Positions 142 to 39,479 of a stretch of 64,000 bases of DNA are shown in pieces. The position numbers were made by a program, and so were the translations under genes. The stretch is from Marsupella aquatica (lineage: Eukaryota > Plantae > Marchantiophyta): contig OZ316897.1 in assembly GCA_973895155.1 (NCBI GenBank), forward strand, positions 18,863,111 to 18,927,110, in the 5' to 3' direction. The notes below the pieces were generated by a model. That model saw only the letters and a program-made list of their open reading frames with translations, did no database searches and was not told the DNA's origin. How positions within the stretch are numbered: position 1 is the first letter of the stretch; each line of letters starts with the position of its first letter.

Positions 142-325
142 CTTAACGCGCCCTAACCCTAATCGGGTTTTCACCCTCAGCCTTACCTCCGGCCTCTGCC
201 CGGGTTCCATGGTTGCCCCTAATTGTTTATATTTTCCTTGTTTTGTCCCTATACTAAGGTGTTCCTAGGGTGCCTTCCTGCTTTACCCACTTAACCGGCC
301 GAGTGATTCCTGTCTAGGCATCACA
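142..325 (-). repeat. First 184 bp of the 3' LTR, interrupted by the nested insertion
   Basis: Nearly identical to 11019-11202; begins TGTGATGCCTAGACAGG on the minus strand. Confidence 0.92.
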
Positions 326-3300: not shown

Positions 3301-3556
3301 CCCTTACCGGTCTATTCGGTTTTGAATTAGTGGTCGTCTCCCCTTCCTGCCTTGGCTCTGGATCGTGTCTGTCCATCTCATCCACTTCTTGCTCCTGAGA
3401 GTTAGGCCGCTGTGCTCTCTCGGCTTCTAATAGGGCCTCAATTTGTTCTGCCCTCGTAATCGGCTTGTATGCCGATCCCTTGGTATTTAATTCCTTGCCG
3501 ATGATCGATGGCGTTGTGGACCCCGTCGGCTCTGCCACAACGCTTGCAGAAAATCC
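314..3556 (-). CDS. pol: Pol: reverse transcriptase - RNase H - integrase, reached by -1 frameshift
   Basis: RT motifs MDGYSGYNQI, MPFGLCNAPAMFQR and FIDD; RNase H FVDVSG...ERNYSTTEREALG; integrase GGHF...CDPC, WGIDYIGP, SDRG and NGLTER. The ORF is open and its stop lies just inside the 3' LTR. Confidence 0.93.
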   Translation of the reverse strand, partial: GFSASVVAEPTGSTTPSIIGKELNTKGSAYKPITRAEQIEALLEAERAQRPNSQEQEVDEMDRHDPEPRQEGETTTNSKPNRPVRGQSMDTKEGTDSASPAEIPVYGGMRLERLEAELDPNLKKQINMIQARQYRKLDLGEGRELNLGRNLAPELEKEISDLLIKFQDVFAWSHQDLKGVDPTLGEHRIDLMLGAKSFRQPIRRMNPKYSLLVKTKIDKLVEAGFITPVLHSDWVSPIVIVPKKAGPDGKPKIRVCQDYRKLNEATLKDHFPLPFTDMVLDMVASHELYSFMDGYSGYNQIRIRQEDQIKTAFITEWGIYVFNRMPFGLCNAPAMFQRLMVNIFHDYLRKFMEIFIDDFAVFGKASKHAKYLRKTFMRCREVGLKLHPDKCFFAVTEGVLLGHKVSRKGIEIDKGKLAVWLDIMQPKNIKDVRSFLGCIGYYRRFIKDFAKLALPLTNMLKAGADFEPTPERVTAVVELKQMLVEAPVMIAPDWNKDFHVFVDVSGFCIGSVLSQLDEKGRDHPIYFASRQLADAERNYSTTEREALGVIYSCKKFRHYLLEYKVIFHTDHESLKYLVNKPDLTGRVARWILLLQEFDYELRIKPGKLHANADFFSRITGKPATDCIDDRFPDEELFVVEIVGTWYPEILQFLSTSRLQPGLSREQAAVFVRKVRQYQCIKGILHKHGINGTIQRCLEKREVKRVLRAMHGEEAGGHFAPVTTSKKILNAGYWWPTLHKDVYQFIKQCDPCQRAGGPRASTRHPLHPILPLAPFEKWGIDYIGPLKPLTHPRRNKYIILATDYATKWVEARPTMKDDAITTARFMYEQIFTRYGAPLELVSDRGTHFLNDIISRLNEQYLVKHRPTTPYHPKANGLTERANGIIGKILNKTVAQNKLDWDDKLFAAVFAYNLAYKSTTGHTPFFLTFGQEALVPMQLEIPTFQVTIEERASAEESLKEREYRLEALEEARMISAERVEYRQNIMKQQYDKRLKVVSIHTGDLVLLYDSRYSRFPGKLYTRWLGPFRVTMMFPNGSVQLANITGEVYPVRIHYDRLKKYYMDEDEVVREDASQLSGELCDA
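326..340 (-). promoter_or_regulatory. Polypurine tract (TTAAGTGGGGAGCTA)
   Basis: Purine-rich run immediately before the TG of the 3' LTR on the minus strand. Confidence 0.75.
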
Positions 3557-6480: not shown

Positions 6481-6528
6481 TACCTACGCTTCCGTTCTAA
6501 CTTCATATCTCATGGCTTAAGAAATGCC

Positions 6529-6545
6529 CCCTCCATCTAGCGCCA
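6529..6545 (-). promoter_or_regulatory. Primer-binding site TGGCGCTAGATGGAGGG
   Basis: Starts with TGG (complement of the tRNA CCA end) 4 nt after the 5' LTR end. TGGCG-type PBS is typical of the Athila/Tat group. Confidence 0.8.
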
Positions 6546-6549
6546 AAAA

Positions 6550-9500: not shown

Positions 9501-11202
9501 CTCCAGTAGTTTCAGCAGACTCTGCATGCCTGGTTGCTGCATCGGCAAGTCTTCCTTCCTGGGCCTAAACACCTGCTCGATCGTAGGACTAACAGGTGGT
9601 TGAGGCTTCTCAGCCAACGGCCTCGGCGTTGGAGCTTCCTCGGGTGCCCTTACCTGCAGGGGAAGTACCGGGGCAAAAGTCTGACCTCTGGCATACCGGC
9701 ACAACAGCGGCATGTGATAGCCAAGCCGCGACACGCTCCCCATGTCGATTACCTGCTGCTCCTCCTTTAAGATCTTCTTCAATTGGTTGAGGAGGTACCC
9801 GTTGTAGTCCCGGCTTGGGTCTGGCCTTTCTGCCAGATAGACCTGTGCCTTGCCGATCTCTGCCCTCGGCAAGTTACAATGCATGGTCACCCGCAAGAAG
9901 TCGATCATCTCTCCTATGTGCGGGTTGGTGCAGGTGTTCCGGAAGAAGCCATTCTTCGTTGATGGCCCGGGGAACGACCGGAACTCCTTGTCAGGCAGGG
10001 TCTTCCTGGTATCAACTTTGGTCTTATTGCCTATCGGCAAGCCAAACACTTCGGCAATTACCTTGGGAGTAAGATAGAAATCCTTCCCATATATCCTCGT
10101 GCAATTGGTCTCGGGTTCCCATGACCCCACGAATTCTAATAGGTCTGACTCCGGTACCTCCGGCTTCAACCATGGTAATCTTACAAAGGCCTCCAAGCCG
10201 GATCCGGCCATGAAGCCTTGGTACTTCTTGGTCTGCATGGCCGTAAAGCATGCATCCTCCTCCCGTGCAAAATGTAGTTGCACCTCCACCGGTAGGGTTG
10301 CCGCCCAGCCCTTCCAGGTGTCATCCCTGGTTGGAATGGCCTTGATGGGATCGACCTCCTCCTCTTCGGCTTCTCCCTGCCTCCTGCTCTGCTGCTCGGC
10401 TGGCCTCTTTGGTGCCGCCGACCTCGTTCTTTTTGCCGGGGTGACTTCATCGTTGACGGCCCCCTTCCTCTTCATCTCTGCTGCCGTGGAGGTTTCTCCT
10501 AGCACCGTTGCCTGGGTCCACCTTTCCGTGCTACCCTTTAATTCCCAATGTATGTCGTTGCAGTTCTTGATGGCCTCTCGGATGCCGACGACGCTGTCTT
10601 TGCAAAACAGAAGATCGTCGAGTTGATTGGAAGTAGGCGTCCACAGGAACTCGTCCTTGATGAGTTCGCCTCCTAAGAAAGCCGTCTTCTGCAGCTCCCA
10701 CAATCGAGCGAGCTCCTGCCGTTCTCGAGCTGCCCTTTCTGACTCCTCGTCCTCGTAAGTCTTGATGTACTCAGTTGCCCGTTCGAACAGGCATCCCCAG
10801 AAATGTGCCGCTTGATTGACGTTGCTCATACCCTCCTTAGGTCGATCGTCGGTATCTATTCTCTCCCCGAGTGCTTGCCTAAGCAGCTGACAGTAGTTGG
10901 CCTCCCGTAGTCATCTGCCTAGTTCGTGCTCGCAAATGAGCCACCATCTCCTGCAAGCGCTCCTTACCCCTCTCCTCTGCCGGTCCTTCTTCCCGTTGAT
11001 CCTTCCTAGCTGCCGACGCTTAACGCGCCCTAACCCTTATCGGGTTTTCACCCTCAGCCTTACCTCCGGCCTCTGCCCGGGTTCCATGGTTGCCCCTAAT
11101 TGTTTATATTTTCCTTGTTTTGTCCCTATACTAAGGTGTTCCTAGGGTGCCTTCCTGCTTTACCCACTTAACCGGCCGAGTGATTCCTGTCTAGGCATCA
11201 CA
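6550..11202 (-). repeat. 5' LTR (4653 bp)
   Basis: TG...CA ends with imperfect inverted termini TGTGATGC/GCACCACA; colinear with the TSD-flanked solo copy at 30520-35209. Confidence 0.92.
7471..11087 (-). pseudogene. LTR-encoded accessory protein (plant-transposon/Athila-ORF2-like domain plus long coiled coil), disrupted copy
   Basis: Same ORF as 30635-34291, with stops at 10913-10911 and 9314-9312 and a 7-bp deletion near 9200. Confidence 0.8.
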
Positions 11203-12400
11203 CATGTTATTCCACACTGTGGTTGTATGAACTTGTGGATGATCAGTCCATTTTGGCTTTGATACATCAAAGACTCTGAGTACGTTGCCACGAAGTTCCT
11301 CCAGCCAGTATTGTTTGTTGCCATCAGAATCATCAATATCATTGTCATAAATCTGCATTTCACAGACAATGTCAGATCATAACTCTGGAATTTATGCAGA
11401 GTCCAGGTTTTATACACACAACAACAGAGAGGATCAGATTTGTCTAAATCTACATTCAAAAAAAGTACAATACTCACTTTAATGTGTTTGGGCACCTCTC
11501 CGCAATCCCTTCGTTGTTTGGCAGTATTATCAAACTGCTTCTTAGCATGCCTTCGTTCCCTGCGCATCTCAGAGGCCCCGCCTGCAATGCACACACATGC
11601 ATTCAATCAAAAAATATGTACATGATTGAAAAGTACAGCAAATGCACTTGCATATGCATGACGAGCAGATTGTGTATTACCTGAAGATCCTCTAGAATGT
11701 AGTACATCAGATTGACCTGATCTGCCTTCAGATGCTGATGGAACCACTAAACAAACACACAACACCAAAGCACTTCAATTAATTTCATTTCCAAGTAGAA
11801 TATCAACTTCCAAACACACCTGAAAAGTAGAACAGTACAATCCACTCACTTTCATATAAGAGTCCAGTGTCTGGGTCTTTCCAACATCTCACCAGCCCAC
11901 CTCCACCAGGCCCAGTCTTCTTAGGACCACGATTTTGTTTTTGTACCTACATCATGGACAATGTAAGCATATCAACATATAATTTGAAAAAGGGACAAGG
12001 ATCCCTTCCTATTAGGATGATGAAGTTCAAGCATTACCTGTTGTTCACTCTCTGGTTCTGACCCTCCAATGTCACAATCCTCAGTGTCATACCCAGAAGG
12101 AGAACCATAGCCATCATCACCAGACTCTGCCATGTTCACCTTGGTAACTTCTGATAGTCTAGAGCTCCTCCTCTTTGGCAATGTTTCAGTTGAAGTACCT
12201 TTCACCAAAGCAGGCTTTCCTCTCTCTCGTTGTACATGTGTGGTTGGGCCTCTAAGGAACAATTAAAGAAATCATCAACATACACCAATGCAGATCAAAC
12301 ATACATGCAAAATGAATCTACAACACCGTAACACTAGTACTTATGTACAGGATCCATACTAGTATGAGACCAATCTGGAATATGAAAACAGAAAAGGAAC
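11203..12400 (-). other. Probable short exons of the second (TnpA-like) gene of CACTA-A, interrupted by the gypsy insertion
   Basis: Short open segments bounded by AG/GT (e.g. MAESGDDGYG...EQQ|GT) downstream of the transposase on the same strand; no diagnostic motif. Confidence 0.35.
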
Positions 12401-12680
12401 CTGACAACTCCATCTACTGAATCAAATTTGCAACAGACATATTAACACACACATCAGCTTGCAGTCTGGCCCCAGTCCTAGATCACGCATAATTTTGACA
12501 TTATGCTCTATGTTTAGATTTCGGGCCTCCTCATAAGGATTCACAGAATGTGACAACCCCTGCAATCTTCCTTTCACAGGCTGCATTCACCAACTGCACA
12601 AATGGGTAAACCATTAGTCTGATTTCATATATAGTCCATACATGTAGTCCATCTATGGACTTCACACACCTAAAACCTAT

Positions 12681-15600
12681 TCACTGCTTATGCCTGCCCT
12701 TTCTTGCAGATCCCTCTGCATCTCTGCCTCGTTTGGGACCAGTCAATGGTCCTGGATTTGCTCTAGACCTACAGGCCTTAGCCAATTCGATGTGTAATTT
12801 GGCATTGTTTTCCATTGTAGCATGGAAATCAAAGTCTATGTAATCACCTAACACCCTTGTGGACCTGGATTCTTTGTGGAGGATTGTTCTCCATGCTATC
12901 CCCTTCTCATTGGGGTGGAAGAAAACCTGCTCCACTTGCTTTGGGAAAACGTAATCCATTTTCTTGGACACACCCAGTTCTCTATGGAAATTCACCTGCC
13001 AAAGACCAGACTCGGAATACCTCATACTAGCAGAGGATTTAGGAGTCCATGATGGATCTGCCCATTTCCCTTTGAAAAGAATCACCTCTTTCCTCAAGCT
13101 GCCGTAATTCAGTACCAAGATATCTGTCAAGGCCCCTACATACTGTACAAATTCTTCTATGGTTGCACCAGACCTGTCCACTCGCTTCTCAGTGAATGTA
13201 GAAGCCATCCCAGAATCAAAAGTGCTGAAAGCACCAGAATCACAATCACTCAAACACCCCAAGGATGGAATAGTCCTCCAATGGTGCCCATAGGCTCTGC
13301 ATGCCCTATACAGTCGTGCCTTCAAAATAGGTGGTGTGGAGTATACAGATAGTAATGACCGCTCAGACTCTTTCTCAAAATTATGGGTATTGACTAATGT
13401 TTGAAACCATTCCCTGAAAGGTGGCAATTCTTGGCAGTCAGCGGGAAATTCCACTGGTTTTCTTCGATTGGCAGGCTTCCTCATCCATTCCTTCCGGAAA
13501 TCCACTCTTCGTTGGGTAACAGTCTCATTGGTAGCATCATATATCCTACATGGCAACAACAACACTGAAGACATTAGTGCATGATCCACCATGAATATAC
13601 AAACACAATGGGGCAACATAATTTAGGGTTTATGTACCTGTACCATGGAGCCACTGTCTCTTCATTCTCCAATATATAATGATGCATGGCCATCATTTCA
13701 GACCAATCCAAAGTTATCGCCTTTGCAGCCCCTTCCAAAACAATGCCTGCAATGCCAGCATCCTCCTCCAACTCCCAGGTTTATTTTCCCTCTCCCTTTG
13801 CATCAATCATGTATTTAGAAAGGAATCCCAAAGACTCATCTAATACATAGCCTTCAGCCATAGAAGCCTCTGGACGTGCCTTGTTTCGTACATAACCCTT
13901 CAATACCTTCAGGTTCCTCTCTATTGGGTACATCCATCTGCCTGTAACTGGGCCACACAAGTCTAATTCCTCCACTAGGTGAATCATTAAATGGGTCATG
14001 ACATCAAAGAAGCTTGGTGGAAAATGGATTTCCAAAATGCAGAGAGTGAATGCAACATCCATCATCAAATTCTCATACATTGAAGGGTCCCACACCTTCG
14101 TACAGATCTGGCGATAGATATTGCTCACCCCAGCTATGGCCAAGCGAACCCCTTCATCAAGTAATCCCATTGTTGCCAGAGGGAGAATCTGTTGCATGAG
14201 TTGGTGGAAATCATGTGATTTCAACCCAGAGAGTTTCTTGGATTTTGTAACACACTTCGCCAAAGAACTTGAAAAACCAGTGGGCCCTTTCAAGGTCAAT
14301 AACACCTCCAAGAACCTTGTTCTTTCCTTCTTGCTCAGGCAATATGGGGCTGGGGGCATCAACAATTTGTCATCGTTACGCTTGGGAGCTGGATTGGGTA
14401 CAAGCCATAGGTGTTGGTGCACTTGTAAGAGCTTCATGTCTTCTCTCACAGAAGGAGTGTCCTTGGTCCCAATGATAGTGTGCACAATGTTGTGTGCAAG
14501 ATTCTTCTCACAGTGCATGGGATCTAGACAATGGTTAATGAGTAGTTTCTGCAGTGGACACACAATTCAGAAATTAGGGCATTGAATACAACTTTTGGCA
14601 TCACTGGACAGTAGTTTGTGCAGTAGACACAATTCAGAAATTAGTGCATTGAATACAACTATTACAAAATCTGGGCTATAGGAAGTATATGAAGAGAATA
14701 TATTTCAAAATCATATGAAGAGATTGCAGAAATTCATTGTAGTAGTATGGAGTCTTACATTCCAATAGGGCAACTTGTACAGACCAGTAGCCCTCTTCAC
14801 TCCATGCACCTTTATGGGGCATTTCTCATCCTCAACCTTGGTTCCTCCCTTCTTCAAATATTCTGTTGTCTCGTCTCCCCACTTCTTTCTATCAGAGCTT
14901 GTCATTCTACACGGTGCAGGTCGACTCTCAATTGCACCATCAAAGTATTGTGCATTGTCTGGTCTACGAAAAAGATGCCTTGCTGCTAACCATCAACGGT
15001 GGCCACTGTACTCTAATTTCTGCAAGTGCTTAGAACCACGTGCCACACATTTTGGCCCACAGATGACACATCCTTTGTATCCAGAGTGTTGTTGTCCAGA
15101 TATTAAACCATATGCAGGGTAATCATTGATTGTCCACAATAGCACAGCCCTAAGGTTGAAGTGTTGAGACAATCCTGGGCGTGGCAATTTGTCAAAGCAG
15201 GGCACTCCTTTCTTCCACAACAGCTCCAGCTCCTCATAGAATGGGCCCAATATTATGTCCAGCTGTTCCTCTGTTACTGAATCAGGTCCTGGAATCAGCA
15301 TAGCTAGCATGACAAAGAACTTCTTGGTGGTAAGCCAAGGAGGTAAGTTGTAATTCAACAATAGTATTGGCCAGGTAGACCAAGCTGTGGAATTATTCCC
15401 AAAGGGATTCACCCCATCAAGTGCCACCCAAATTGCACATTCCTTGGTTCAGCTGCAAATTTCCGATCAATATTTGTATCCACATGCTTCCAAGCCTTTG
15501 AATCTGCTGCGTGCCGAACCATGTTGTCTGAGCTTCTATTCTCATGATGCCAAGTCATGAGTTTAGATGTACCAGCAGTGGCATACAATCTCTTCAACCT

Positions 15601-16641
15601 AGGAATTATAGGGAAATACCGCACCACCTTCCTTGCCTGTAATGAATTCCCCACTCTCTTCATCTTGGGCTGCTGACACACTGAACAGTTTTCTAACTTG
15701 GAATTCTCACCCCTAAAGAGCATGCAACCTTTCTCACAGATAGGGATTCTCTCATAATCCAAGCCAAGCTTTCTCAATAGCTGCTTTGCAGCATATAAGT
15801 TCTTGGGCAGATTATGCTCTGCAGGCATACCATGCTCCCCCATCAAAGACAACAATGCATTCACTCCTTTGTTTGAGAATCCATGGCCATGACAGATGTT
15901 CAGCAGAAGCAACATGAATGACACAACATCTATTTTGCTGCCTGGGAACAAAGGTTGCATTGCTGCATCTAAAGATAACTGTGTAGGATCAGTCTCCACA
16001 GGAGTTTCAGAGGTTTCAAGGGGGTTTACAGGATGGGCACCTTCTTCACTCTCATCATCCCCAAGTACAAAATCCAAGTCAAAACGGTCCTGATCATCTA
16101 GTTCATGTTCAGGGGATTCTTCACTGGTTCTCAGCAACGTTTCTTCTAGTAGAGCCCTAATATGTTCTTCGACATCTATAGTTGGATGTTCTTGAACATC
16201 CATAGTTGGATACTCTGGAACATCCACAGTTGGATACTCTGGAACGTCTACAAATAAATGTTCTTCAACATCTACAGTTGGTTGTTGTGCACAGGTTGCC
16301 TGCTGAAGGTTTGCTACCCTCAATGCCTCAGGGCCATGTTGTGACATGTAGTCAGCACCCCACTCTTCATCAAAAGAGTCTTGTCCCTCTCCCACCCACA
16401 CTCGACATGCAGGGTACCGACCATGTTTAATAAGGTGCAGTCTAGCAGTATTCCGATTAGTCCTATAATTCCCTTTGCAGTTCACACAAGGGTAGTACAT
16501 CTTATGGTCCCCACTCTTGTGGCAGGCCTTCTGTTCTCGAACCCACAAAGCATCATCACGATGTTGTACTCTAGCTGGATGGAAGAGCGGCAACTTTGGA
16601 GTTCTACCCACACCTAACATATTCTGTGGCAATTGTGCCAT
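12681..16641 (-). pseudogene. CACTA/En-Spm transposase (TnpD/Tnp2), element A; spliced, with frameshifts and a stop
   Basis: N-terminal YPCVNC...HLIKHG motif; RYFPIIPRLKRLY; DGVNPF...STWPILLLNYNLPPW; NDYPAYG; DPMHCEKN; GLKSHDFH; WMYPIERNLKVLKGYVRNKARPEASMAEGY; C-terminal DUF4216-like region. Confidence 0.92.
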
Positions 16642-17225
16642 GCTAGCTTGATTGAAATTGTATTCAAACTATGATTTTCAAACTGAATCAGTGTGACATG
16701 CATACAAAATTGGGCCTACCGTCACAGTTGTACAACCGATGCCAACCACAGTCCAATTGCTCAAACCCACAGAGCCCAGATTCTCAAATCCACTGTAGTG
16801 GGGCACCTTCTCCTTCTTGCATACAAATAGAGCATCACATACAGTGTCATCAGAATGATACTATGAACGTAAATCTCTGTGCCTTCATCATTTCCAGTAT
16901 TTGTTTGCCTATTAGGAATGTGAGCAGACAGGTCTAGAATAAGTAACGTTTGTGACATCAGTGACAAATTTACAAGTGAAGTTTAGACATCACACTCAAA
17001 GCACATGCATGAAAATCAGAATCCTACCCTGGAAAAGATAGTAAAGTTGATTTCTCAAAATTAATTGCCTCAATCCGCAATGCACTGTCGTAGAGTGTGT
17101 ATACATGAGGAGTTCATCAAACTGCATATAAATACTCCACATGTTTTAGCACTCTGAAAATTGTTTAAGTCCACGTGAAACCATCAAAAAGCTCTATCTC
17201 AAGTTTGTGTTCCATCCAGCCTCAA

Positions 17226-17885
17226 TCAAATCCAAGATATGTGGCTCCTAGCAGGAGTGCCTAGTGTAGGGTCAATGTCATGGTCAGGACAGTAAAACAT
17301 CCCCTTCTTGGGCTGCCCATGCGCTGAGTGATCCCAAATTGTTCGATCATGGGCAAATCCCCTCTGCTGGATAAACAACAGGCAGTCCTTGTGCCATGCC
17401 TTAGGACACCTCATGCACTGAACCAAAAAGCCATTAGCCCCATCATTGGGCCCCTGTCCACAAGTAAGACAAATATGGAGTCCACATGATGCTGTGCCAG
17501 GAACCAAACACTGCCGACAGTAAAACTGGGCACAGAGAGGGTCTGGACATTTTCTTACCTCTTCACCAATTTTTCCAGACACATGGCACTTAAAGCAAGA
17601 ATGTTCATCATTCTTGCAATCAACACAAAGCCATTCTCCAACATGGCCATCAGCCAGGGATATAGTTGGGCATAGCCATTGCTGACCCAAAGGACAGGAA
17701 ACATTCTTATGGAAATGTCGGTGGCAAGGCCCATCACAAACAATGAGATCCCCTCCCTCATCACAAATTGCACATACATGTGGACTATTTTGGTTAATCT
17801 CAATGTCTGAATATAAGGCCAATTGAGGTGCTTGAGAGGATTCACCTCTGCAACGATTCATGGCCTTCTGCTTATTGCGAGCCAT
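17226..17885 (-). CDS. EDM2-like composite PHD-finger protein (219 aa) with histone-H3-like N-terminus; transposon cargo
   Basis: VCAICDEGGDLIVCDGPCHRHFH...C..C...H.CFKC...KC...C..FY...CGLHIC..C...CMRCPKAWHKDCL...YCPDHDIDPTLGTPARSHI follows the EDM2 PHD module, including its C-terminal YCxxHxIDxxLxTPxRxH motif. ATG at 17885 is in an ACCATGG context and gives MARNKQKA. Intact and intronless. Confidence 0.85.
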   Translation of the reverse strand: MARNKQKAMNRCRGESSQAPQLALYSDIEINQNSPHVCAICDEGGDLIVCDGPCHRHFHKNVSCPLGQQWLCPTISLADGHVGEWLCVDCKNDEHSCFKCHVSGKIGEEVRKCPDPLCAQFYCRQCLVPGTASCGLHICLTCGQGPNDGANGFLVQCMRCPKAWHKDCLLFIQQRGFAHDRTIWDHSAHGQPKKGMFYCPDHDIDPTLGTPARSHISWI

Positions 17886-18506
17886 GGTCCTGCACACTCA
17901 GACCCTACATCAAATTGTGAAACAAGAAGGAATAACAGGGTGCAACATGACACAAAAGAATGAGGGTGCAGCATAAAATATGACATGTAACCACAAGCAC
18001 AACTACATTTCACTACGTCGTGACTTCCTTTCGCGTCATGTGACACGACGTTACACCCCAGTACATCTCCCTCTACGTCGTAACCCAAAATGGGTTTACC
18101 CATTTGACTTTCCTTCCCATTTTACGTCGTCTAGAGGGTCTTTAATTTAACGTATCTCCCAATAGGGCTATTTACGTCTTTTATAACGAGGCAAACATGT
18201 AGACGTCGTCCCAGACGGTGTAGCAGAATAGGGTTGGGTCGACGTATAGATGTACGTCGTTTCAGACGTGGCTATAACAGATACTATGATATGACGACGT
18301 ATAATGGATGTTGGGCGATGTTAGACATATATGACCAATGTGGGAAACAACGTTAATGGAATCCAATTGGCATGCGTAAGGTTTTTTGCGGGAGTTTTTG
18401 GGGCAAGGCTACTGGGACCTCACTGCACAGGTCATTCGTGATTTCAGATGTCCTACGGGTACGATAGTGCACAGAATTTGCAGAGTGAGATTGAAAGTCT
18501 TCAGCT

Positions 18507-19067
18507 ATGGTACGTAAGATATTCAAGGATGTCCACTGTTGTTTTCTTCCGCTAGGTGAAGAAGACAAGACTGTTCATGGCTTTTTTTGTCGTGGAGGTG
18601 TGATAGACAAGTTTTGTAACTCAAAGACGGAATACTTGCTTGCCAATACCTGGAAACAAGTCACAGAGCACTTCAGTGACTATCCTGGATTGATCGAGCA
18701 CTTTGCAGAGTCCGTGCATTTCATCTCGATTTGTTGGGTACAGTACTCCATTCTGGGCAATAAGGAGTTGGACCCAGAAGAGTTTTTGCTGCATCCAGGG
18801 GATGATTTGATGCTGGACGATACGCCCAAGGATGATGATGGTGAGGCTTGTCCACCAAAGTTGGCTAAATGTCAGTTGTCACCGACTAAACTTGATATTG
18901 TGATGTATGACTACAAGGAAAGCTGTGCAGCTGAGATTGAGGCTGAAAGGCTGAAGGTTGGTGAAGCAGTGGTCCGCAAGAAATGGAACGCCAGCAATAG
19001 GCGTGATTTGTACAAAAAGAGGAAGGCAGATGAGGAGTACTACTGGTCTGGTGAAGGGACCCCTTAA
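18507..19067 (+). CDS. Unknown cargo ORF of element B (186 aa), convergent with the transposase
   Basis: Open frame with protein-like composition, flanked on both sides by ACGT-motif arrays; no recognisable domain. Confidence 0.5.
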   Translation: MVRKIFKDVHCCFLPLGEEDKTVHGFFCRGGVIDKFCNSKTEYLLANTWKQVTEHFSDYPGLIEHFAESVHFISICWVQYSILGNKELDPEEFLLHPGDDLMLDDTPKDDDGEACPPKLAKCQLSPTKLDIVMYDYKESCAAEIEAERLKVGEAVVRKKWNASNRRDLYKKRKADEEYYWSGEGTP

Positions 19068-19703
19068 GCTACACTAGTGCCAAGGTCAGCTGGAGACGGA
19101 GGAGCATCATTTGCCTAGGATTGGAATCAGTTTAGACTGGAGTCAGACTCATGCCTTATGTGCACGTTGTATGTTTCTGAGCGCATGAATAAAAAGTCCC
19201 TCCCAGGCAATTTATATTTGTAATGTGTTTTGTGAGTAACGTCGATTGAAACTTTGAACGTCATCAGAAGAATGGTTAAATAAACGTTTACGTCGTTTAA
19301 GACACGGTAACACAATCAACGTCGTCTAATACGAGGTAAACCAAGGACGTACTATGTATACGTCGTTTGTACAACGTATCTACGACGTAACTATAGATTA
19401 ACGTCTTCATTATGGGTATAAGCGACCTTTGATTGTCTAATGACGTTGAGGTTGACGTTAATAAGTTCGAAGTGTCAATTGGCCTACGTGATAAGGGTTT
19501 ACGTGCTAGGACCCATTGAAGGTTGTTCGAAGGCCGAGGTTTAATGCTTTTTAATGTGTTCTTAGCTATAAAGTGAGGAAAGACGAAACTTTGCACAACT
19601 CTCCCTCCAATTTGCCAGATCTCAAACGTCGAAACATATGTCAATATATATGTGGAAGGTGGGCATAGCCAATACATATAAATGGAGGGTGTGAAGGATA
19701 GTG

Positions 19704-22700
19704 TCAGTCCGCATCGTCTGCAAGGACTGATGCCATGAAGCCCTTCCTTCGCCGAGGGAAAATTGGTATGACAATGGACCATCCTCTCATGGTCTGCATC
19801 GGAACCATAATGCACTGATCCACCTGGCTAGGAAAAACTATGGTGTCACTAAACTCAGTCCCTGTGGGTGCAACTCGGGTTGTGTCCACGCGATAAAAAC
19901 CACACTCATCCGCAACCATCGTAGCTCTCGCTGGGGGTGACATGATCGACTTGTGCCACCTCACCTCTAGTACAGTGGTGACAAATGACCCAAAATGAAC
20001 ATCTAAAATGTCCACAACTGTCCCACAATAAGGAACCTCTACATCATCTACATCAGTCATCATGAAGATTCCAGAGTTACAAGTACTCTTCTTCATATGG
20101 TCTGTCCTCCAAGTCCGAAAGTGATGCCCTGACTCATACATGTGTGTATGAGTCGTGGCCCGCATCCCTGGCCCTCTAATGATGTTTTGTACATCAATGG
20201 GAATGGATGTAGACCCATGCACAGCCAAGAGCCTCTCCATGCGCTCCAAAGCCCAGACATGAAATGATGCAATGCCACGACCTGCTTGCGCAACTCCCAC
20301 TTGAAGCTCCAACCATGCACTGCCAAATACGTTGTCACAAGATTGTTAGAGATTTGCAGCCTTCTCAAATCCAATTCACAATCGATTAAAATTTTAGAGT
20401 ACCATACCTATACATCTCCCTCCAATCAGACATCTCCGGTCGATTCCCCAACACATAATTATGGATCTGTCGACGAAATATGTCATCATCCAATGATCGC
20501 TTCTTGGCCGCACCCATCAATCGCAGCCCACCATTGTCATCATCTTGTGCCTCTTCCCAAGTTGTGGGAGCTTTGCTATCCAAACTCCCTATCACCCCCC
20601 GAAATAGAAAAGACACTCTGACATAATGAACCCTGTTGCCATACGTCCCTCAGGTCGAGCGGGTTGACGCACCCAACCCTTGAGCACCTTCATATATCGC
20701 TCAACCCAATACATCCATCGGGCATGGACTGGGCCTGCAATGGCAACTTCATCCACCAGGTGACATAGCAAATGCATTTGCATGTCAAACAGTGCTGGGG
20801 GGAACACTCGCTCCAAATTGCACATCACTTGCGCTGTCCTCTCCCTCATCAAAGGAATCTCTGACTCCTTGATCTCCTTGGCACATACCCACCTATGAGG
20901 CACTCAAAAACATGACAGGAATAAATATCACCGCCCAATCTGAAAGTGGGCTAAGATGGTTACCAATTCAATGCCTACTAACATTCCCTCTACTAAGATT
21001 CCTACAAACGTCGCTCTGCAGGACGTTCCTGAAGAGGGGTGACTTATACGACCTTGAATACGTCGTATGTGGAGTCTTATTTTTACATTACCTAGTTATA
21101 GATGACGTAAAGTATTAAGAGACTACGTATCCTCTCTAGAATGTCGTTTGAGACACCATAAATTTATGGTCCCATAACACCACAAAATCCACGAGTAAGA
21201 TATTTCCAACCTGAAAATGGAGCACAACTCGTACACTGTGAGTTGGAGTAGGTGGCGCTCTCTAGAATCATCGCAACAATGCAACACTGCAGGGAGCACA
21301 TGCTGTATCAGCTTGTGATAATCGTGGGACTTCAACCCTATCGGGGGGATGTACTCATTCCTCGTTGTGCACCCACGGAATCCAGCTCTGTAATGGCTCG
21401 GGAACTTCATCTCACAAATCATCCCATTCACATCCTTCAGAATGTCTCGAGGCAAAATCCAAGGGGCTGGTGGTGTCACCCCAGTACGTGCTGTCCAATA
21501 ATTAAAGAGAATCAACTTGTTAGGGTTTGGGGTTTCAGGCAAATCCGGGCAACTTCTTACAAATTAAGGGTTGATCGATGTTTTATCATGTACCTGATAT
21601 CCAACAGCTCTTCACAACTCCTACATTCTTTGCATCCACACGAACTCCACGAGTATCATTCTCACCATACATGTGCTTCACCAAATTCTTTGCGACATTC
21701 ACTTCAATGTGCATGGGGTCCAGTAGCCACCGGATCTTGAGCATCTGCTTGCACAACATGGTAATCAAGTGAAAAACTCTAGCATTATGAGAGTTGATGA
21801 AAAAATCTATACACAACATTTGATAGGTGTATTGTACCTACCCTCCAATAAGGCAAGTCCCACAATGCTGAGCGTCAGTTTACTCCACAATCTTTGGGTT
21901 TCAGCAGCTTAGCCTCCACCATCTCTGCCATTTGAATTTGAGCTTCTGCTGAAGGCGCATTAGGACATGGTCTTAACTCAATCTGTGCCCAATGTCTTGT
22001 GTTACATCGCATGGGGTCATCCATTGACAATCTCATCCTGCTGCCCTCATATGTGGTTTTGTGCAATAGTACTGAGTACCTCCCATGCAACTCAGGGCCA
22101 CATGAAGGGCAACCTGAGTACCCAGCCACCTTCAAGCCTGATATTGTGCCCATGCCTGCCAAAGAAACCCCATCATATTCCCACAATAAAAGAAGCCAAA
22201 TGAAGACATAAAGTCATTTAGCACAATATAATCACATTTTGTAAGGTTTTTGAATTACCGGGCCCATCAGTGGTGCAATGGGTGATCATGACTCTCATGT
22301 TGAATGTCCTCCCATTGTCCGGTGCACGGGTGACATCTGTTGTTGGAGCCCCAATTTCCCACAAGTCATGTAGCTCTTCATAAGCTGGGGCCAAGCAAAC
22401 ATCTGGATTCTTGCAAGCCTCGGGACCGGGAATGATAGCTAGGAGGAGAACATGACCTTTTTTCATCGCCAACCATGGAGGGATGTTCTGATTTATCAAA
22501 AGAACTGGCCAAATGGACTTTGGTTTCCGTCGCTGCTTGTATGGGTTTACCCCATCTATGGCCAACCCCAACCAAACATTCCGTGGCTCTGCAGCAAAAT
22601 CTGGCCATGTGGCATCAATGTGCTTCCATGCTGGACTATCTTGGTGATACCGCATTATCCCTGTTGGGGATTTGGTCTCGGCATGCCAAGTCTGTAGGGA

Positions 22701-25606
22701 GGATAGGTGTCTTCGCCGGTATAGATGCTGCAATCGGGGTGTGATTGGAAAATACCTCAGTACCTGAATGTACAACAACCATGAGGCGGCATTTCGTCGT
22801 TAACATCACAAATATGTTGACGATAACTACGTTCCAAAAATCTTTACGATGTTCAATACGACATATTACTTCTGTATTGAACATAACTACGTATCCTAAA
22901 AGTGAATGACGTTATAGTTTCATGTTGAGCAGATCTATGTTCTCTAAACTTTTACGTTGCAAAAAGCAACGTTGGACTAAAAAACGTCGTATGGAAAGAC
23001 GTAAAAATCACAAGGGAGATGTTAGGGTTATTTACTTCTAGTTGAAAGACGTACTACTCACGAGGGCAACGTTAAGGGACACAAAATCCCGTAAAGTAGT
23101 CAAAAATTACTAAAATACAGATGTGGTACAGAGAGGATGTCATTACCTTCTCAGCAATCTTGTCTCCAATGGTATCAGGACGATACCGTGGAAGGCCACA
23201 TCGCTCAATTGGGCAATGGGTGAGGTCCAAGTACGGTCCTCTATACAAGATGCACCCATGAGGGCACATATGTATAGTCTCTAACGCCAGTCCGATAGAT
23301 GATAACAACTTCTTAGCCTCCCTCACACATCCTGGAAGGTTGTTAGGTTGAGGCAAGAGTTTGTTGTGGAACAACGCAAAGAGTGCATCTGTATGGACAT
23401 CTGATCCATTGAAAACCCCCTGTAAATTCAACATCAAGAGTGTGGCTCCCAACCTGCATTTGCATTGAAAACCACAAAGAAACCAGCTTTTTAATTAGTT
23501 TAAGGCATGCCATTGAGGATGGTCCAATTGGGGACTTAGGGTTTATGCACACCCTTAAGCAACATTACAGTAGAAAAACTATAATAGCACCTCAGAGAAA
23601 TGTACCGTGAGGTCGGGGAACCCTGGAATAGCGGAGTCCTGGATTCAGTTTCCAATTGGTCCCAATCATCTTCGTCTAGTTCCATGACAGGAGGGTCACC
23701 CTCAGGTACATGAGGTCCAAAGTGGATGTCCACAAGGTGCGCAAAAGCATCCTCTTCAAGAATAGGTGCATCCATATCATCCTCTACATCTTCATCAAAA
23801 TCGTCATCATGTGCATCATGGTACTCATTCACATCCTCGTCCACATCCTCGTCCTCATGCACATGATCACTCTCAACATCTTCGTCGTCAGAAAAAGATA
23901 ATGTGGCTCGCATGTGGAACGAACGGGCTGACTCCGTCATCATCGATGGATGAGGTGTAGGTGTTATATTTGGACCATCCTATGCAAGACGTCAATATTA
24001 GATAAGGTCATCCCCAAATTAGACAATGTGTTCCCAATAGTGCATGAGGTAATGAAGGTCAAAGAATCCAATATAAGTCTCACTCTGAGTAATGAATAAG
24101 TGATCAATAACATATATAATCTTCAATGCCAATCATAGTCTACAAATATCTCATCCCCTGCTCGAATGGTGCGGGTGGCATGTGTCAGGATGTAGTGACT
24201 GCATCCCAAGGGCAAACGAGGGTGACTCTGGTCATGGTACTCATGCCACTCAGCGTTGGGGCGGAACCCCAAACGCCGACACCCCACTGTGCTATTGATG
24301 TAACCCGCCAAGTTTCCAGTACGAGGGGGGTAACCATCCATCTGAGTATACCTAGGGTCCAACTTAAGTGACATGCCATACCGACCAAAGGTTGGGCATT
24401 GGCGAGACAAGATACGCCATCTATGGGCCGAATACTTTGGCCCATAAAATGGAATCAACTCGGGCAGGTCCTCAGGTGCACAACCTTCCGGCACCACAAT
24501 ATCCACGAGTGCAAATAATCCAAGACCTACGTCGTCTCCCAATGTGGATGGGAGGAGGACCCATGGCCTATCCCAAACTACAATAGGCTCCCGAACAAGC
24601 AGGACCATAGGGAGGCCAAACTGGGTTGGGAATGAGTCCTTTATGATGTCCAAGGCTCTCCCTCTTAACTCTCTTGGTGCTCGGGAAAAAGAGGCATCAA
24701 GAAAAGGACAGTGTGGCGGCACCGTCCTAGGGGTACGAGACGTAATGGACCGAGGTCTAGTGGTGACCTCTACTCCCCTCTCAATAGGGTGACTCCGAAT
24801 GACCCTCCTCCTCCTATCAAAAACACGGTCTATTGCCCTTAATGTGGCATCGAGTGCTGATGGGGGAACTAGTGCTGTGAGCGCGCGACGTGCAACCTGT
24901 CTCATGTGGTCCAAGGGCGGAGAGACCACACACAAAATCTGTTTCACATGTGAACAAGAGAACTTCAGAAATCAGGGAAAAAACCATTTCAACTAAACAC
25001 TCAAGAAACTCAAGAAACCCAAACATGTTATATTCAAAAATAAGGACTTAATGAATTGAATAGTGTCAATAAAGGTTTATGAATTACCTGATGTGTCGGG
25101 GGTACGTAACGGCCGTGGAGGCCTAAATGGCTAAGGACAGTGGTCCTCTCGTGGGAGACGACGCCCTTGCATCTACTACATGGGCAGGGCATCTTTCGGA
25201 CTGGGCCAATCCCCTGAAGGGCAGCCATGGCCTCTCCAAACCTATCCTCATCCTCCGGCATGGGTGATCGGTGTCGGGGTGTGTGGTCATCAGAGGGAGA
25301 CCTGGACCGGCGGTGGCGGTGGGACTGTCGATGGGACCTCCTATGCCTTCGTCGCTCCCGATGTCGATGATCCCTAGATCGGTACTCCCTATCTGAAGAC
25401 TGATCCCAACTCCTCTCAGACGAATGGTGCCTGCTCCTATCAGATGATAAGTCCCTCCTCCTCTCGGCTGAGTGGTATCTCGACCTCGCAGGTGAGTGCT
25501 CCCTCCTCCTCTCCCTCCCCCTATCATGAGAGCGGTACCTGTCTCGGTGATGTGCACCTCCATCATAGCGATCATCAGATGACCACTCCGATGAGCACGA
25601 GGCCAT
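19704..25606 (-). pseudogene. Multi-exon CACTA transposase of element B, with at least one premature stop
   Basis: Exon 1 (25606-25088) has PCPCSRC...HLGLHG. Later exons start at 23979, ~23453, ~22763 and onward and carry RYFPITPRLQHLY, DGVNPY, DPMHIEVNV, GLKSHDYH and WMYWVERYMKVLKGWVRQPARPEG. TGA at 21877-21875. Confidence 0.9.
24123..25606 (-). CDS. SET-domain (lysine methyltransferase-like) protein; predicted splice 25606-25088 + 24938-24123, about 444 aa
   Basis: SET motifs VGLGLFALVDI, FYG, GNLAGYINS...PNAEW and ATRTIRAGDEIFVDY. Phase-0 donor CAG|GTAATT at 25088 joins phase-0 acceptor AAACAG|ATT at 24938. Confidence 0.8.
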
Positions 25607-26124
25607 GGCCTGCAATAGTACACACACATATACACGCAAACTTGCAAACTCAGCCTTGGAAATGGAACGTCGGGACCACTATAGTACCACAATATTTACG
25701 TCAAGTAAAACGAAGTACTTTCACTTTACGTCGCCGAGAACACAATACACGACGTATTTCTTAAACCCTACGTCATGTACCGTACCCCACACGACGTTAC
25801 AGTAAACCCTACCTTTTAACGGTGTACAGAACAACGTTTAAATGAAAACGTCGTCTAGCACAACGTATTACTAATCGATCAATTAGGGCATCGTCATGAA
25901 AAACGATGTAAATAGACAGAGAACGGCGGAAACACATTGTTGCAAACTCTGCCGCATTCTATTCGGAAAATACCGGGACATAGTGTCGAATGTGAGTCAT
26001 TCGACCATTCCGCACACACCTCACCCCACATCTAGTGTTCTATTCTGTTCGTGGCTCTAGTGAAGCTCTAGTGAAGCTCTAATCTTTGTGAAGGTCATCT
26101 ACATTTGCTCCAAGTCTCGCCTCA

Positions 26125-28131
26125 ATGTCACGTCCAGCTTATCTGCCCCTCAGTATCAACTTTGATGCTGTGAAAGTTTCCATGGAAGACCCAGAGGAGG
26201 TGGAGAAGGTTCGAACAGCTTTGCGGTCAGCACATTCACTGATTGATGCTTTCAATCAGAGTTGGCAATTCATGGGAGGAACTGGGACGAAGGAGTCACG
26301 ATTTTTGGAATACCTTCAGAACATAGAAGAGAACGCTCCAGCATCCGACGTTGAGCCCGACATTCAAGCACCAGAGTTCTTGCGCGACCTTCCGGGGGCA
26401 TCACTTGATCCTCTTGCTTCCTTCCCGCCCTTGATGGACTCAGTCTGGGACTATCCCTCGTTCTCTGGGATGGAGTCGGATTCACAACCACCCTGTGTTA
26501 CTCCCATCAAGAGCCAAGTGAGGATTCAAAGATATGAGCCTGATGATTCAAGTACAGAGTTGCGGACACACAGAAGGCGACGTCGTTCCCGTTCTTTGAG
26601 TAGCAATAGTAGCATTGAGAGGAGACAAAAAAAAGGGGAAGGGAAAGGAGCGCAGAGAAAGAGACAGCCGCAGCACAACAAGAGAAAAAGGGTTGAACGA
26701 GATTCGAGGGTGGACAGAGATAGGAGAGGTCGAAGGTCACATCGACATTCACATTCAATCGGAGGAGGTCATCGGCGAGCTTCTCCTAACCGAACCGTTG
26801 CTACTCTTGCCAGCAAAGAACAACTGCCGGTCATCAGCCTGGCTGCTTTTGATGCGAAGCCAGAGGTGCTTGATGAGAAGGCGCTAACGAATCGAGTGCA
26901 GGTCTGCTGTACGAAACACTGCCCTGGGTGGACGACTTGGAAGGACCTCGTGCACAATACAAAGAAGTTTCAAGTACTCCTCAATGACATACAGGCCGGA
27001 TTCAAGAATGGCAGAGAGATTGATTTTCGACACATCAGGCAGAAGATTGTGAGTTTCCTTGCTGACAGAAGATTCAGGTGGAGAAGCAAGGTCCGAGCAA
27101 TGAAATGCGAGAAGACAGGGCAGTACCGTAAGCCTGAAGGGATGGCCGAGTCGGACTTCAACTTGATCGTGTCTGAACTTGAAGCACCCCCAGACACCCT
27201 AGTAGGAAAATGAGTGCACATGGGTGACAAAGCCACTGCAGCTCGAAAGAATAGCGGACGCCTTCTAGTAACCAATTTCTGGGGGCAAGGAGGATGGCGA
27301 GGGTTCCTCGCAACCTACGTAAGTCTCGGACCCAACTTCCACATTTTCATTTTGCTGCTCCGGTGTAAACCATAGTGTAACGTCGAGATTTTGAAATTAC
27401 GTCGCCTGATTCATTCATAACGTCGTCCATAACAACGTTAACTTTGATTTGTAACTTCATCTTAGACGTACCTTAGGAAGAACGTCGTCCTTGAGACATT
27501 ACATGTACCGCTTTAGTGAAAATGTCGTTAGAGCGACGTTAACTAGATATGCAACGCATGGAACGACGTTAGCACCGATGCTGAGAGGGTTGAATACGTG
27601 CTTAGGAACGACGTTCTTTTGCTTTCTCGCAGAAACGCAAGTTTGGTGTCGATGCCGAGCCGTCGGAGGAGGAGCGGCTGTACTCGAAACGGTATGGCCC
27701 GGCAGCGCTATGGGCCAAGTTGGCCTCAGTCCCGGAGGATCACCGGGTAAGAGCTAAAGTGATTGCTAGGTTGTAGTTGACTTTAGGCCTACTCTGTGAC
27801 ATTAACTGACCAGAATGCTATCATGCAGGTGGAGGATTGGACTCCTCCGGAGGGCTTGGTTGCACGGGCCATCCCTGAGGATCACTTGCCAGCCAGGGTA
27901 CCGCCCGAGGAGGGTTTGCAGGAGGAGGCTCACGTAGATTGCGGGCAGGAGGAGGGAGAGACTCATGGGGGGCGTACTAGTGGCCAAGGCCGGAGGGAGA
28001 GAGAGAGAGCCAAGGGAGGGAGAGAGAGGGAGATAGGGAGAGGTCAGATAGACAGAGGGGGAGGGAGAGGGAGAGGAGGAGGAGGGATGACACTAGGCGA
28101 CCTCCACACAGTAAGGGGAGTAGGCCAGTGA
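26125..28131 (+). pseudogene. TnpA/Ptta-like second gene of element B, divergent from the transposase
   Basis: WTTWKDL...KFQVLLNDIQAGF...FLADRRFRWR...KPEGM...FNLIV pattern and NFWGQGGW resemble En/Spm ORF2 proteins. In-frame TGA at 27211; further exons at ~27633-27746 and from ~27829. Confidence 0.6.
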
Positions 28132-30519
28132 CTACTCATAGGGCTGCAACACAAGCAGATACGTTGTCCCCCAGTACCACTAGCTTAGAGGAGGATGACT
28201 CCAGGTACGAGTTGCGCCCGAGAGGCGTACAACCCACTTCTACAAGCAGGTCTGGACGTGATACCAGGCGGACTGAGCGTGACTAGGGTATAGCCTATTT
28301 TACTTGCCCGACTTCATCCTCCATTTTGTACATATTTGGCCCATAACAATATTATCTAATACGACACTTTTCGCGGATTACAACGTCTATACCATATGCA
28401 TATTGAATGTGTATCCCTAAACCCCAACTGCCTACCCAAATAATGCTCACCCCATTGTAACCCTAGCTTAAGTGTGTTTATAACCTCCAATAAGGTTGTA
28501 TGGCAGGGTCCGACATAATATACGGGGCGTCGTTCATTCATAAAGTTACCAAGCTTCTCACAAGGTATGACCCAGACGTAGTCTTCCACTTTCACACAAC
28601 GTCGTTCATGACATCGATATATGATAACAACGTCTTATCACACCACGTAAACCAATGAACGAATTCACATTACATCAAACGGAACGGTGTCCCAGACATC
28701 GTTACAAACACTGACGTTGTCTTATACGAGGGAGTCAACGTCGTCAATCACGACGTTTTGTTTGTATTAACGTCAGTTCGTGCGACATTCAATGGACATG
28801 GAAATCTACATTAGCCCAGTACTCTAACGATGCATAGGACGTTGTGCACACAAAGAACCACGTTGGCGGTGTGGCAATGTGCGTTGTGTGAGACGACGTA
28901 AGAAACCACATCAATATAGACGTCCGGAACGTTGCCAATTTTACCTTGGGGATTCCGTGTTTCCATTTAGAGTTTCATACGTCGAGATTAGCCTGTTGTG
29001 AGGCAACGTTAAGTTAAGTCAAAATGTAGTTGTGAAGGGAGCAGCATAAACCAATGCTTTATGGATGGCAAAGCACTAGGACTGAGCAACGCAAATAACC
29101 TTGGCCTATGATTGGAAGCAATCACAAATATTGCAACCTGTATGCCTTTGCCTTCTGTCCAGCAGTGCTCACTCACCCTGCCTTTTTTAAATCTGTAAGG
29201 GCAACACAAAACAAATAGCAATTGAGTTTCAGCAAAGCATTGGTTCTCAAGTTTTAAAATGGACAGACTTGTTTCATTGTCTGCCTTGTGCGCAGCAGGC
29301 TAAGACCGATCAGGGCAAATAATTTATATATTCAAGTAGTGAGAGCTACAAAATTTGCTGGGACAGTTTTCTAGTTCTGGATCCTGCTGCGCTTTATATA
29401 CAGCAGCAACCTGAATTCAATTTTTATAGACCATTAGATTGGGGTGTTTCTTTTCACCACGGCTATTACTTCAATGAAATCACTATTGTTTCATGTTTAC
29501 TTCAATAGTCTCGTGGCAATCGAAGGGTTCGGAACTTAACATAGCAGACACAAAAAATGTATGCTAAGCAGGAGGAGAAACAGGGCAATAGAGCAACATA
29601 GCAAGAAGGCAGGGGTAGCATGGCAAAAGGAAAGAGTAAATTGAAACTATGAAACATAGCCAGATTGAAGGGGAAGAAGAGCACAACCTCTTGCAGCTCC
29701 CGTTTCTCCTCCTGTAGCTCCCGATGTAACCTCCCGCAGCTCCCGCAGCACACTGACAAACGGTGAGACCTCCTGCAGCTCTTCCCGCAGATCCTGCCTG
29801 TTGTGACCTCTTGAAGCTCCACCAATGTGACCTCCCGCACCTCCACCACTTCTCTGTAGCTTAGTTATCCCCAATCATAGCTTGCAGCTCCTTCCCAATG
29901 AGCCCTAAACCACTCCTCGCAGCCGAGCTCGCAGCTTATGACCCGCAGGTTATCACCAATCACAGCTTGTCGCCCTTCGCTGAGGTAGCCTCCCGCAGCT
30001 CCTTTGTAATGTATTGTCCCAAGTCTCCTCCTCACCCACTGGTTATCATCGATTGCACGTCGTCGCCCTTTGCAGCTTTCTGAGACATATAGCTCCAACA
30101 TTAACGCCAAATGCTCCGCAATGTTGCGTGACACTGCAACAATGGATTGGAGCTCTTCCGTGGTAGTAGCTCCCAAGTCCTACCGGCTCACCCTAAGCTT
30201 TCCTACTCCCCTGACCGCGCACAGCACCCTGATACAGTTTTTGGGAAGAAACGGAGTGCGCACTCCACAAAGCTGTCTCAACTCGCAACTGAACTCAAAT
30301 GCGCCCCGCACTCCATGCACATTGCCCACCGCCACATTCCTTTGATGAAAACGCGCACCTCAACCACAAAAACCCTACATTTCACAACTTGGGCTCGACT
30401 CGATATTTGCCGTTGTGCACCTCCAATGCAGATTTGCCGACCACTTTTGTTCCGAGGGCCTACTACAAGAACGCGGGAATTGGAGCACGATGTTGATTGT
30501 ATGATCCAGGGTGTGATCT

Positions 30520-39400: not shown

Positions 39401-39479
39401 TCAATGACTCTACAATTATGACCGGTGTCTGGAATGACTATTGAGTATTTTAATTTTCATATCTCTTGGGTTCTTTAAT

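Follow-up and report, generated by a model that had tools for sequence, protein, structure and literature searches.

The mini-EDM2 locus and its transposon setting

The window, i.e. the whole 64-kb stretch of DNA that was analysed (64,000 nucleotides), contains a single copy of a coding sequence for a protein of 219 residues, P0001, which is termed mini-EDM2 here (Table 1). According to the original prediction an intact, intronless ORF lies about 600 bp upstream of the transposase of a CACTA transposon, element A. This was confirmed: the stop codon of the ORF is located 585 bp upstream of the transposase and the two genes have the same orientation. The protein starts with MARNKQKA and, as had been noticed, A1, R2, K4, Q5 and A7 are the same as in histone H3. 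The R8-K9 part of the H3 motif is absent and M8-N9 occurs instead.

Table 1. Positions of features in the window
Feature	Position	Strand	Remarks
Mini-EDM2 ORF (protein P0001)	17226..17885	-	219 aa, intronless, uninterrupted frame
Start Met and H3(1-9)-like motif	17856..17885	-	inside predicted disordered tail, residues 1-22
EDM2-type 2½-PHD zinc cassette	17229..17780	-	residues 36-219; C-terminal EDM2 motif ID-x-x-L-x-TP-x-R-x-HI
Likely 3' splice site (TGCAG)	17890..17891	-	4 nt before ATG; putative 5' UTR intron; sequence consensus only
Best 5' splice-site match region (AGG/GTGAGT)	29168..29179	-	putative; first intron base 29176, just past element B
Element A CACTA transposase	12681..16641	-	Transpos_assoc, Transposase_21, DUF4218, DUF4216; at least 3 lesions
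3' part of element A region	11203..12680	-	CpG-depleted like transposase; stops at LTR retrotransposon edge 11202
Likely remainder of element A 5' end	29035..30417	-	putative; CpG-poor intron-like part, then GC-rich GCTGCGGGAG-repeat region
Nested CACTA element B	17998..29034	.	perfect 13-bp TIR CACAACTACATTT, 3-bp TSD AAG, own broken transposase
186-aa ORF in element B	18507-19067	+	intact; left end of element B
SET-like ORF in element B	24123-24905	-	intact, 260 aa
362-aa ORF in element B	26125-27213	+	exons to ~28.3 kb
LTR element, left copy	1-11202	-	Ty3/gypsy-type
LTR element, right copy	~30520-35000	+	Ty3/gypsy-type
Satellite-like tandem arrays	36164-39999		periods 81, 83, 43, ~373 bp
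ORF cluster between tandem repeats	40296-48366		unexplained
N6_N4 methylase-like match	45717-47534		weak; in ORF cluster
NIF/CTD-phosphatase-like ORF	47989-48366		in ORF cluster
Amino-acid transporter gene (Aa_trans)	54956-56311	+	intronless
Second transporter copy	near 56.5-56.8 kb	-	decayed-looking

Both PHD_NSD and PHDvar_NSD were detected in the Cys/His module of P0001 above the Pfam cut-offs, and the PDB sequence matches of the protein were NSD2/NSD3 and AIRE PHD1. The stop codon directly follows the cassette, and the ELP (N6-adenine methyltransferase-like) domain as well as the RFD-like/acidic N-terminal region are lacking. An AlphaFold2 model computed with 57 sequences (pLDDT 88, pTM 0.83) predicted a confident cassette preceded by a disordered segment of residues 1-22. 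This model superseded an earlier fold obtained with 12 sequences, which had a pLDDT of 60 and no Foldseek match at E ≤ 0.001. The best fold matches were the PZP of JADE1/BRPF1 and the PHD-C5HCH of NSD proteins (Z 5.5, rmsd 2.5, 75 aligned); a solved EDM2 structure was not among the fold-search matches. No sequence-specific DNA-binding domain was found in P0001: all significant Pfam, PDB and fold matches were of the PHD/NSD type, and the zinc cassette covers residues 23-219.

At least three lesions disrupt the transposase of element A: the reading frame shifts near 15,430, and stop codons occur in frame at positions 14993 and 13781. It had been emphasized that the mini-EDM2 ORF stayed open although the neighbouring transposase decayed. 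The transposase is indeed broken, but the contrast carries no weight, as three lesions per ~3.65 kb of transposase translate to 0.54 lesions expected in 657 bp and a probability of 0.58 that the ORF is intact by chance. Intactness of the ORF as a sign of selection on the copy in the window was rejected for this reason.

Element ends were searched all against all by combining CAC..GTG ends with a 3-bp duplication. Of the 775,424 pairs, element B emerged as one clear best. A closed TIR pair for element A was not found within the window, where all CAC..GTG ends were searched. The sequence CACAAC starting at 30417 is a possible terminus of element A, for which the window contains no partner TIR. 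On the left, element A is bordered by an LTR element from 11202, and on the right an LTR element begins near 30520. The two are copies of one LTR family that are 93-95% alike and face outward around the CACTA pair.

Element B was inserted upstream of the mini-EDM2 ORF, at a distance of 112 bp from the ATG, and does not include the ORF. The element has a non-canonical CACAA terminus and CpG-rich non-coding regions full of ACGTCG/ACGTTG, as expected of TnpA/VANC-type binding arrays, and carries 63 of the 76 ACGTYG-type motifs of the window. An ACGTCG-rich island at 18.0-18.4 kb was rejected as the mini-EDM2 ORF's own promoter since the island forms the left end of element B. Three ORFs of element B deserve mention. 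The SET-like ORF (Pfam SET 24.1 bits, cut-off 22.4) separates the first exon of the transposase gene from its remainder and possibly encodes a transposon-borne methyltransferase. The 186-aa ORF gave no Pfam or PDB match, and its look-alikes in the ESM Atlas were mostly BRCT proteins (0.81-0.88), which is a lead only. The 362-aa ORF, which is divergent from the transposase of element B and has no Pfam match, is a candidate TnpA-like accessory gene. Elsewhere in the window, the ORF cluster listed in Table 1 is possibly another cargo-bearing element.

The ratio of observed to expected CpG was 0.17 in the mini-EDM2 ORF and 0.22 in transposase A, with values of 0.32 for the spacer and 0.31 for the stretch to the right of element B. 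For contrast, the ratio was 0.72 in element B and 0.60 in the host transporter gene. The similar CpG depletion of ORF and transposase, which points to a common methylation footprint, their common orientation and their short distance favor a transposon link. So do the intronless state of P0001 and of a related metagenomic locus (L001, see below), the frameshift in the latter, the failure of 13 of the 30 family members in a full-length test, the lack of gene names from annotated genomes among the members looked up, and the presence of SET-like and BRCT-like ORFs in the neighbouring element B. Against this link stand the unclosed TIRs of element A and the fact that this is the sole locus at which the family occurs with a transposase. 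From its sequence context we consider it probable that the mini-EDM2 ORF lies inside element A, the case for transposon carriage coming from a single locus.

An in-frame stop is present five codons upstream of the P0001 ATG in the unspliced sequence. If element B is removed, the likely acceptor and the donor at 29176 delimit an intron of 250 nt, and splicing via three candidate donors did not add an in-frame ATG upstream of P0001. The positions of acceptor and donor suggest a 250-nt 5' UTR intron that was interrupted by element B. Since element B sits so close to the ATG, the 11-kb insertion has probably cut off this mini-EDM2 copy from its likely promoter. This separation, together with the loss of the R8-K9 half of the motif, leads us to lean towards a relic as the present status of the copy in the window.

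A family of stand-alone proteins within the EDM2 tree

Homolog searches with P0001 returned 3 close relatives, 371 representatives at E ≤ 0.001, of which 150 were listed, and 22 profile matches. Thirty members were chosen from these by their short length and the signature Q-x-[AS]-[PA]-H-x-CAIC. P0005, which is near-identical to P0002, and the fragments P0056 and P0084, which lack PHD1, were left out. The mini-EDM2 family thus has at least 30 stand-alone proteins of 210-245 aa, including P0001. The members that were looked up stem from Logan, JGI, ENA or SRC, and a gene name from an annotated genome was absent from all 13 of these and from all 22 profile matches. In a full-length test 17 of the 30 members passed; among the 13 that failed are frameshifted sequences, fragments at contig ends and at least one case missed by the pattern. 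Longer forms close to mini-EDM2 were not found among 1,066 candidates, except for a Calypogeia paralog, and no transposase similarity or fusion was detected among 182 proteins. The isolated module proposed originally is accordingly a stand-alone protein.

Phylogenetic analysis placed the module inside the land-plant EDM2 family, in agreement with the EDM2-type assignment. The members formed one clade both with FastTree (support 0.999; 19 members and 38 of 83 host cassettes) and with IQ-TREE (UFBoot 97; all 30 members and 19 other hits, tail excluded, midpoint root). The sister group, with UFBoot 100, consisted of liverwort PHD-only EDM2 paralogs (Marchantia MPTK1_1g03210 and MPTK1_4g03050, Calypogeia CAM6087769.1). 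The stem branch of the mini-EDM2 clade is long (0.91), and long-branch attraction is possible for this sister placement. From the tree, the host of P0001 is probably a land plant outside the seed plants, perhaps a liverwort. Divergence within the family is deep and fast. Two of the liverwort paralogs, P0011 and P0014, resemble mini-EDM2 in having nothing behind the cassette and an M-A-R-V start, but the paralogs are annotated host genes of 280-770 aa and do not have the K4/A7/K9 pattern. An origin of P0001 from NSD proteins was rejected since both the tree and the C-terminal motif put the protein with EDM2. Judged by sequence, P0001 is EDM2-derived and is no EDM2 ortholog, because of its size of 219 aa, the stop right after the cassette, the 210-245 aa of the whole family and the lack of a close longer form.

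Two related loci were found in metagenomes, L001 and L002, the match of L002 spanning 23 residues only; viral or prokaryote contigs gave none. L001 (1.5 kb) is intronless and frameshifted, and it begins at an ATG homologous to that of P0001, so the start codon is conserved. Outside the ORF its 1.5 kb gave no match to the window, which also speaks against the transposon link. Identities between P0001 and L001 by codon position were 0.54/0.64/0.37 over 105 codons, which is consistent with past purifying selection.

These data bear on the possibility that mini-EDM2 is a host gene family, i.e. a lineage-specific, shortened EDM2 paralog without introns (retrogene). Its H3-like tail would be genuine, its role would be the regulation of host chromatin, and it would adjoin a CACTA element or be passively carried by it. 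Liverworts already own PHD-only EDM2 paralogs that are the sister group of mini-EDM2, short EDM2-like genes starting with MARxK occur in annotated Eleusine genomes, the ends of element A are unclosed and L001 has no transposon context. Furthermore, the stretch that separates the ORF from the transposase holds a canonical CACTAC (16800, minus strand). This sequence is, however, merely ~160 bp from the start of the transposase, and CpG depletion continues from the transposase through the ORF. With many members broken, the deep and fast internal divergence, and no looked-up member coming from an annotated gene set, we regard a host gene family as unlikely.

The short EDM2-like proteins are an observation in themselves. 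P0053, P0111 and P0116 (320-390 aa) have a MARxK start, P0053 and P0116 being from Eleusine coracana. P0053 falls inside host EDM2 and outside the mini-EDM2 clade, and mini-EDM2 proteins with a mimic tail may possibly have arisen twice, independently.

The H3-like tail and the PHD cassette

To evaluate the tail we scored the N termini of 28 members against all orderings of the nine residues of H3(1-9); the remaining two of the 30 members had too short a sequence. The true H3 order ranked 2 of 22,680 permutations for the 28 members, which descend from one ancestor and represent one motif under test, not 28 independent ones. It came first in each restricted set: among 5,040 orders that start with A, 1,260 that start with A-R and 360 that keep A-R-x-K. 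When P0001 and P0002 were excluded these four ranks were 4, 2, 2 and 2. The pattern [AST]-R-x-K-x-x-[AS] was present in 19 of 28 members and in 2 of 698 matched basic controls. Among the 22 members anchored on [AST]-R-x-K, A7 was found in 14, K/R8 in 15 and K/R9 in 14. Conservation ends after position 9, with positions 10-12 of the tail having no consensus. The motif occurs in most subclades of the tree that was built without the tail. For P0001 itself the score of the tail had a P of 0.004 against 500 shuffles, and P0001 was the only one of 141 ORFs of at least 60 aa in the window that obeyed the iM-Z-R-x-K rule.

Twelve control sets of basic 28-mers with matched K/R content gave ranks of 4,161-19,721 for the H3 order. 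Of the single basic 28-mers, 10 of 698 reached the mean score of the family and one reached the score of P0001. Mimicry of the H3K27 region (rank 8,017 of 30,240) and of the H4 tail (rank 644 of 1,512) was rejected. The first 25 residues of P0001, searched against PDB sequences, gave no match at E ≤ 10, and histone H3 itself was not retrieved.

As to the conservation of the ARxKQ start across copies, [AST]RxK is present in 22 of 28 members, and a Met directly precedes it in just 10, in 8 of which this Met is residue 1 of the predicted protein. The six members without [AST]RxK include P0003, the second-closest relative (71% identical), whose start may be mis-called. In 12 members the motif lies further inside the protein, where A1 has no free amine.

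An M-A-R start was also found in 13 of 137 other hits among the matches listed, including EDM2 of liverworts and of the lycophyte Selaginella, and for these hits the H3 order ranked 107 of 22,680. Thus, A1-R2 of the tail may be inherited from host EDM2. Full-length or long EDM2-family proteins that start with M-A-R-[TVA/E] are P0011-P0015, P0034, P0040, P0051, P0075 and P0096, with Marchantia, Riccia, Calypogeia and Selaginella among the sources. The other long EDM2-family hits among the matches listed mostly start MASSDDE-like. The M-A-R starts of host EDM2 may have gone unnoticed as a mimic of H3 A1-R2 or as an N-terminal module.

Another explanation is that the tail is a nuclear localization signal (NLS) or a basic DNA-binding patch behind a Kozak-favoured Met-Ala, that the protein is a dominant-negative or decoy EDM2 fragment and that the H3 match is coincidental. 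The tail contains 23% K/R, and the top-scoring permutation is not exactly H3; at position 6, a T in H3, it has the K that 10 of 22 members carry, and this strengthens the basic, NLS-like character. In more than half of the members the motif is internal or absent, and MAR starts pre-exist in host EDM2. On the other hand, matched basic segments had a mean H3 score of 7.3 against 17.0 for the family and rarely contained the pattern. Moreover, A7, a non-basic position of H3, is mostly kept in the anchored members, and the H3 order still ranks first when A-R-x-K is fixed. We therefore consider an NLS or basic patch quite unlikely. By these comparisons the H3 resemblance is a trait of the family, extends to the A7-[RK]8-[RK]9 half and is stronger at this level than was claimed for the single ORF. 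Real selection for this resemblance is, in our judgment, probable, and more so than it seemed ahead of these tests.

The zinc ligands of the cassette are kept across the family. At positions -3/-2 relative to the first Cys of PHD1, 97 of 116 other hits among the matches listed carry an acidic residue. None of the 30 members does; they have Q-x-[AS]-[PA]-H at this site. The position aligns with the NEDEC stretch of AIRE, which presumably has a role in H3K4 reading. In PHD2, which is ~20 residues shorter than in EDM2, a His ligand is replaced by Cys: YHxxC was present in 0 of 30 members and in 127 of 137 other hits among the matches listed. EDM2 was reported to bind H3K9me2 (PMC7472560, PMC7529245, PMC9910501, PMC4980392) and to promote distal polyadenylation (PMC7529245, PMC7472560). 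Because of the lost acidic residue and the His to Cys exchange, the H3K9me2 binding of EDM2 cannot be transferred to mini-EDM2, and H3K9me2 reading by the family appears doubtful.

The tail might also act on a PHD domain in cis or in a homotypic manner, plugging the protein's own cassette or that of host EDM2 as an autoinhibitory switch that is released or locked by methylation. The predicted disordered tail of 22 residues immediately before PHD1 would suit this role, and MAR starts are also found in full-length EDM2 of liverworts and lycophytes. Such a switch nevertheless seems very unlikely, given that the acidic residue aligning with the presumed K4-reading region of AIRE PHD1 is missing in all members and that the tail is undocked in the single-chain model. 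A complex prediction of tail residues 2-31 with the protein's own cassette (residues 32-219), run without alignment, scored 0.02 and is uninformative either way.

Proposed function and relation to known systems

The explanation that we prefer is that mini-EDM2 is a CACTA-borne counter-silencing protein using a histone-tail mimic, an idea that is plausible yet short of probable. Removal of the initiator Met would expose A1 of the tail, as in H3; a Met-removal rule with this outcome was described (PMC8166343). The EDM2 cassette would dock on the chromatin of the element, or on EDM2 partners or in competition for them. The tail would then serve as a false H3 tail, i.e. a decoy ligand or substrate that titrates or redirects readers of H3K4me0 and H3K9 methyltransferases or readers. 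As a result, the element might be transcribed and spliced through H3K9me2 chromatin. H3K9me was reported to persist on TnpA-activated Spm elements (bioRxiv 10.64898/2026.08.24.746577); a factor of this kind could therefore benefit an element whose transcription runs through heterochromatin.

Mini-EDM2 may alternatively be an integration or targeting cofactor that works with the transposase and steers excision or insertion to a given chromatin state, with no role in silencing. The apparent transcription unit common to ORF and transposase and the SET-like and BRCT-like cargo in element B would agree with such a cofactor. It would need a reader and not an H3-like tail, however, and the absence of transposase fusions from the longer-form candidates and proteins mentioned above also makes this role highly improbable.

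Returning to counter-silencing by histone mimicry, a broader and more tentative scenario is that an old CACTA family in non-seed plants captured an EDM2 module and evolved a mimic of H3(1-9) that spans K4 and K9. This might be a first transposon-encoded histone mimic and a case of counter-silencing via the histone code, with the SET-like and BRCT-like cargo of related elements as further chromatin tools. The plant transposon anti-silencers described in the accessible sources, VANC and TnpA, bind DNA motifs, and histone mimicry is known there from viruses and host proteins. If the scenario is true, a transposon family would join both strategies by keeping a mimic of H3 K4/K9 on an EDM2 module that it captured, and selfish DNA would attack the histone-reading layer of silencing. 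The 219-aa protein would then also be a natural probe for EDM2 and H3K9 pathways. Should the family prove not to be transposon-borne, it would still be an unannotated class of plant H3-tail mimics.

A full-text literature search revealed neither a transposon-borne EDM2 fragment nor a transposon-encoded H3 mimic; the supplements of a survey of Spm structure could bear on this novelty. In their accessible text, a TE-proteome atlas (PMC13547354), a gene-capture review (PMC13317346), a mimicry review (PMC13165374) and a land-plant epigenome paper (PMC11982613) do not mention such a protein.

Among the known systems that come close is EDM2 of the ASI1-AIPP1-EDM2 complex. Mini-EDM2 shares with it the 2½ atypical PHD cassette, the EDM2 spacing and the C-terminal TP-x-R-x-HI, and is nested in the EDM2 family. 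It differs from EDM2 by the missing RFD-like, acidic and ELP/methyltransferase-like domains, by the added H3-like tail, and by the changes in PHD2 and before PHD1 described above.

The tail itself resembles those of the H3TMs of Chen et al. (2021; PMC8166343), whose iM-Z-R-x-K definition covers 48 human proteins and also P0001, which likewise has a predicted disordered tail. In contrast to H3TMs, mini-EDM2 is from a plant and probably transposon-borne, and the match of the family reaches positions 5, 7, 8 and 9. Viral mimics such as influenza NS1, with an H3K4-like motif, and SARS-CoV-2 ORF8, with ARKS, similarly have a short H3 motif on the side of the parasite, which was proposed to divert host chromatin factors (PMC13165374). 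In mini-EDM2 the motif is N-terminal and placed on a captured host chromatin module, and the parasite would be an intragenomic element and not a virus.

DNA-transposon accessory genes that oppose silencing are known in VANC21, Spm TnpA and TE-encoded PMD homologs of MAIN/MAIL1. VANC and TnpA act via sequence-specific DNA motifs and hypomethylation, whereas mini-EDM2 has no recognisable DNA-binding domain and would use histone mimicry. The PMD proteins show that a TE can encode a homolog of a host chromatin factor, in their case with a proposed counter-silencing role (PMC8616336; bioRxiv 10.64898/2026.08.24.746577), and by analogy they are the nearest conceptual precedent of mini-EDM2. In its overall layout, mini-EDM2 resembles a viral histone mimic or an H3TM that is joined to an EDM2 fragment.
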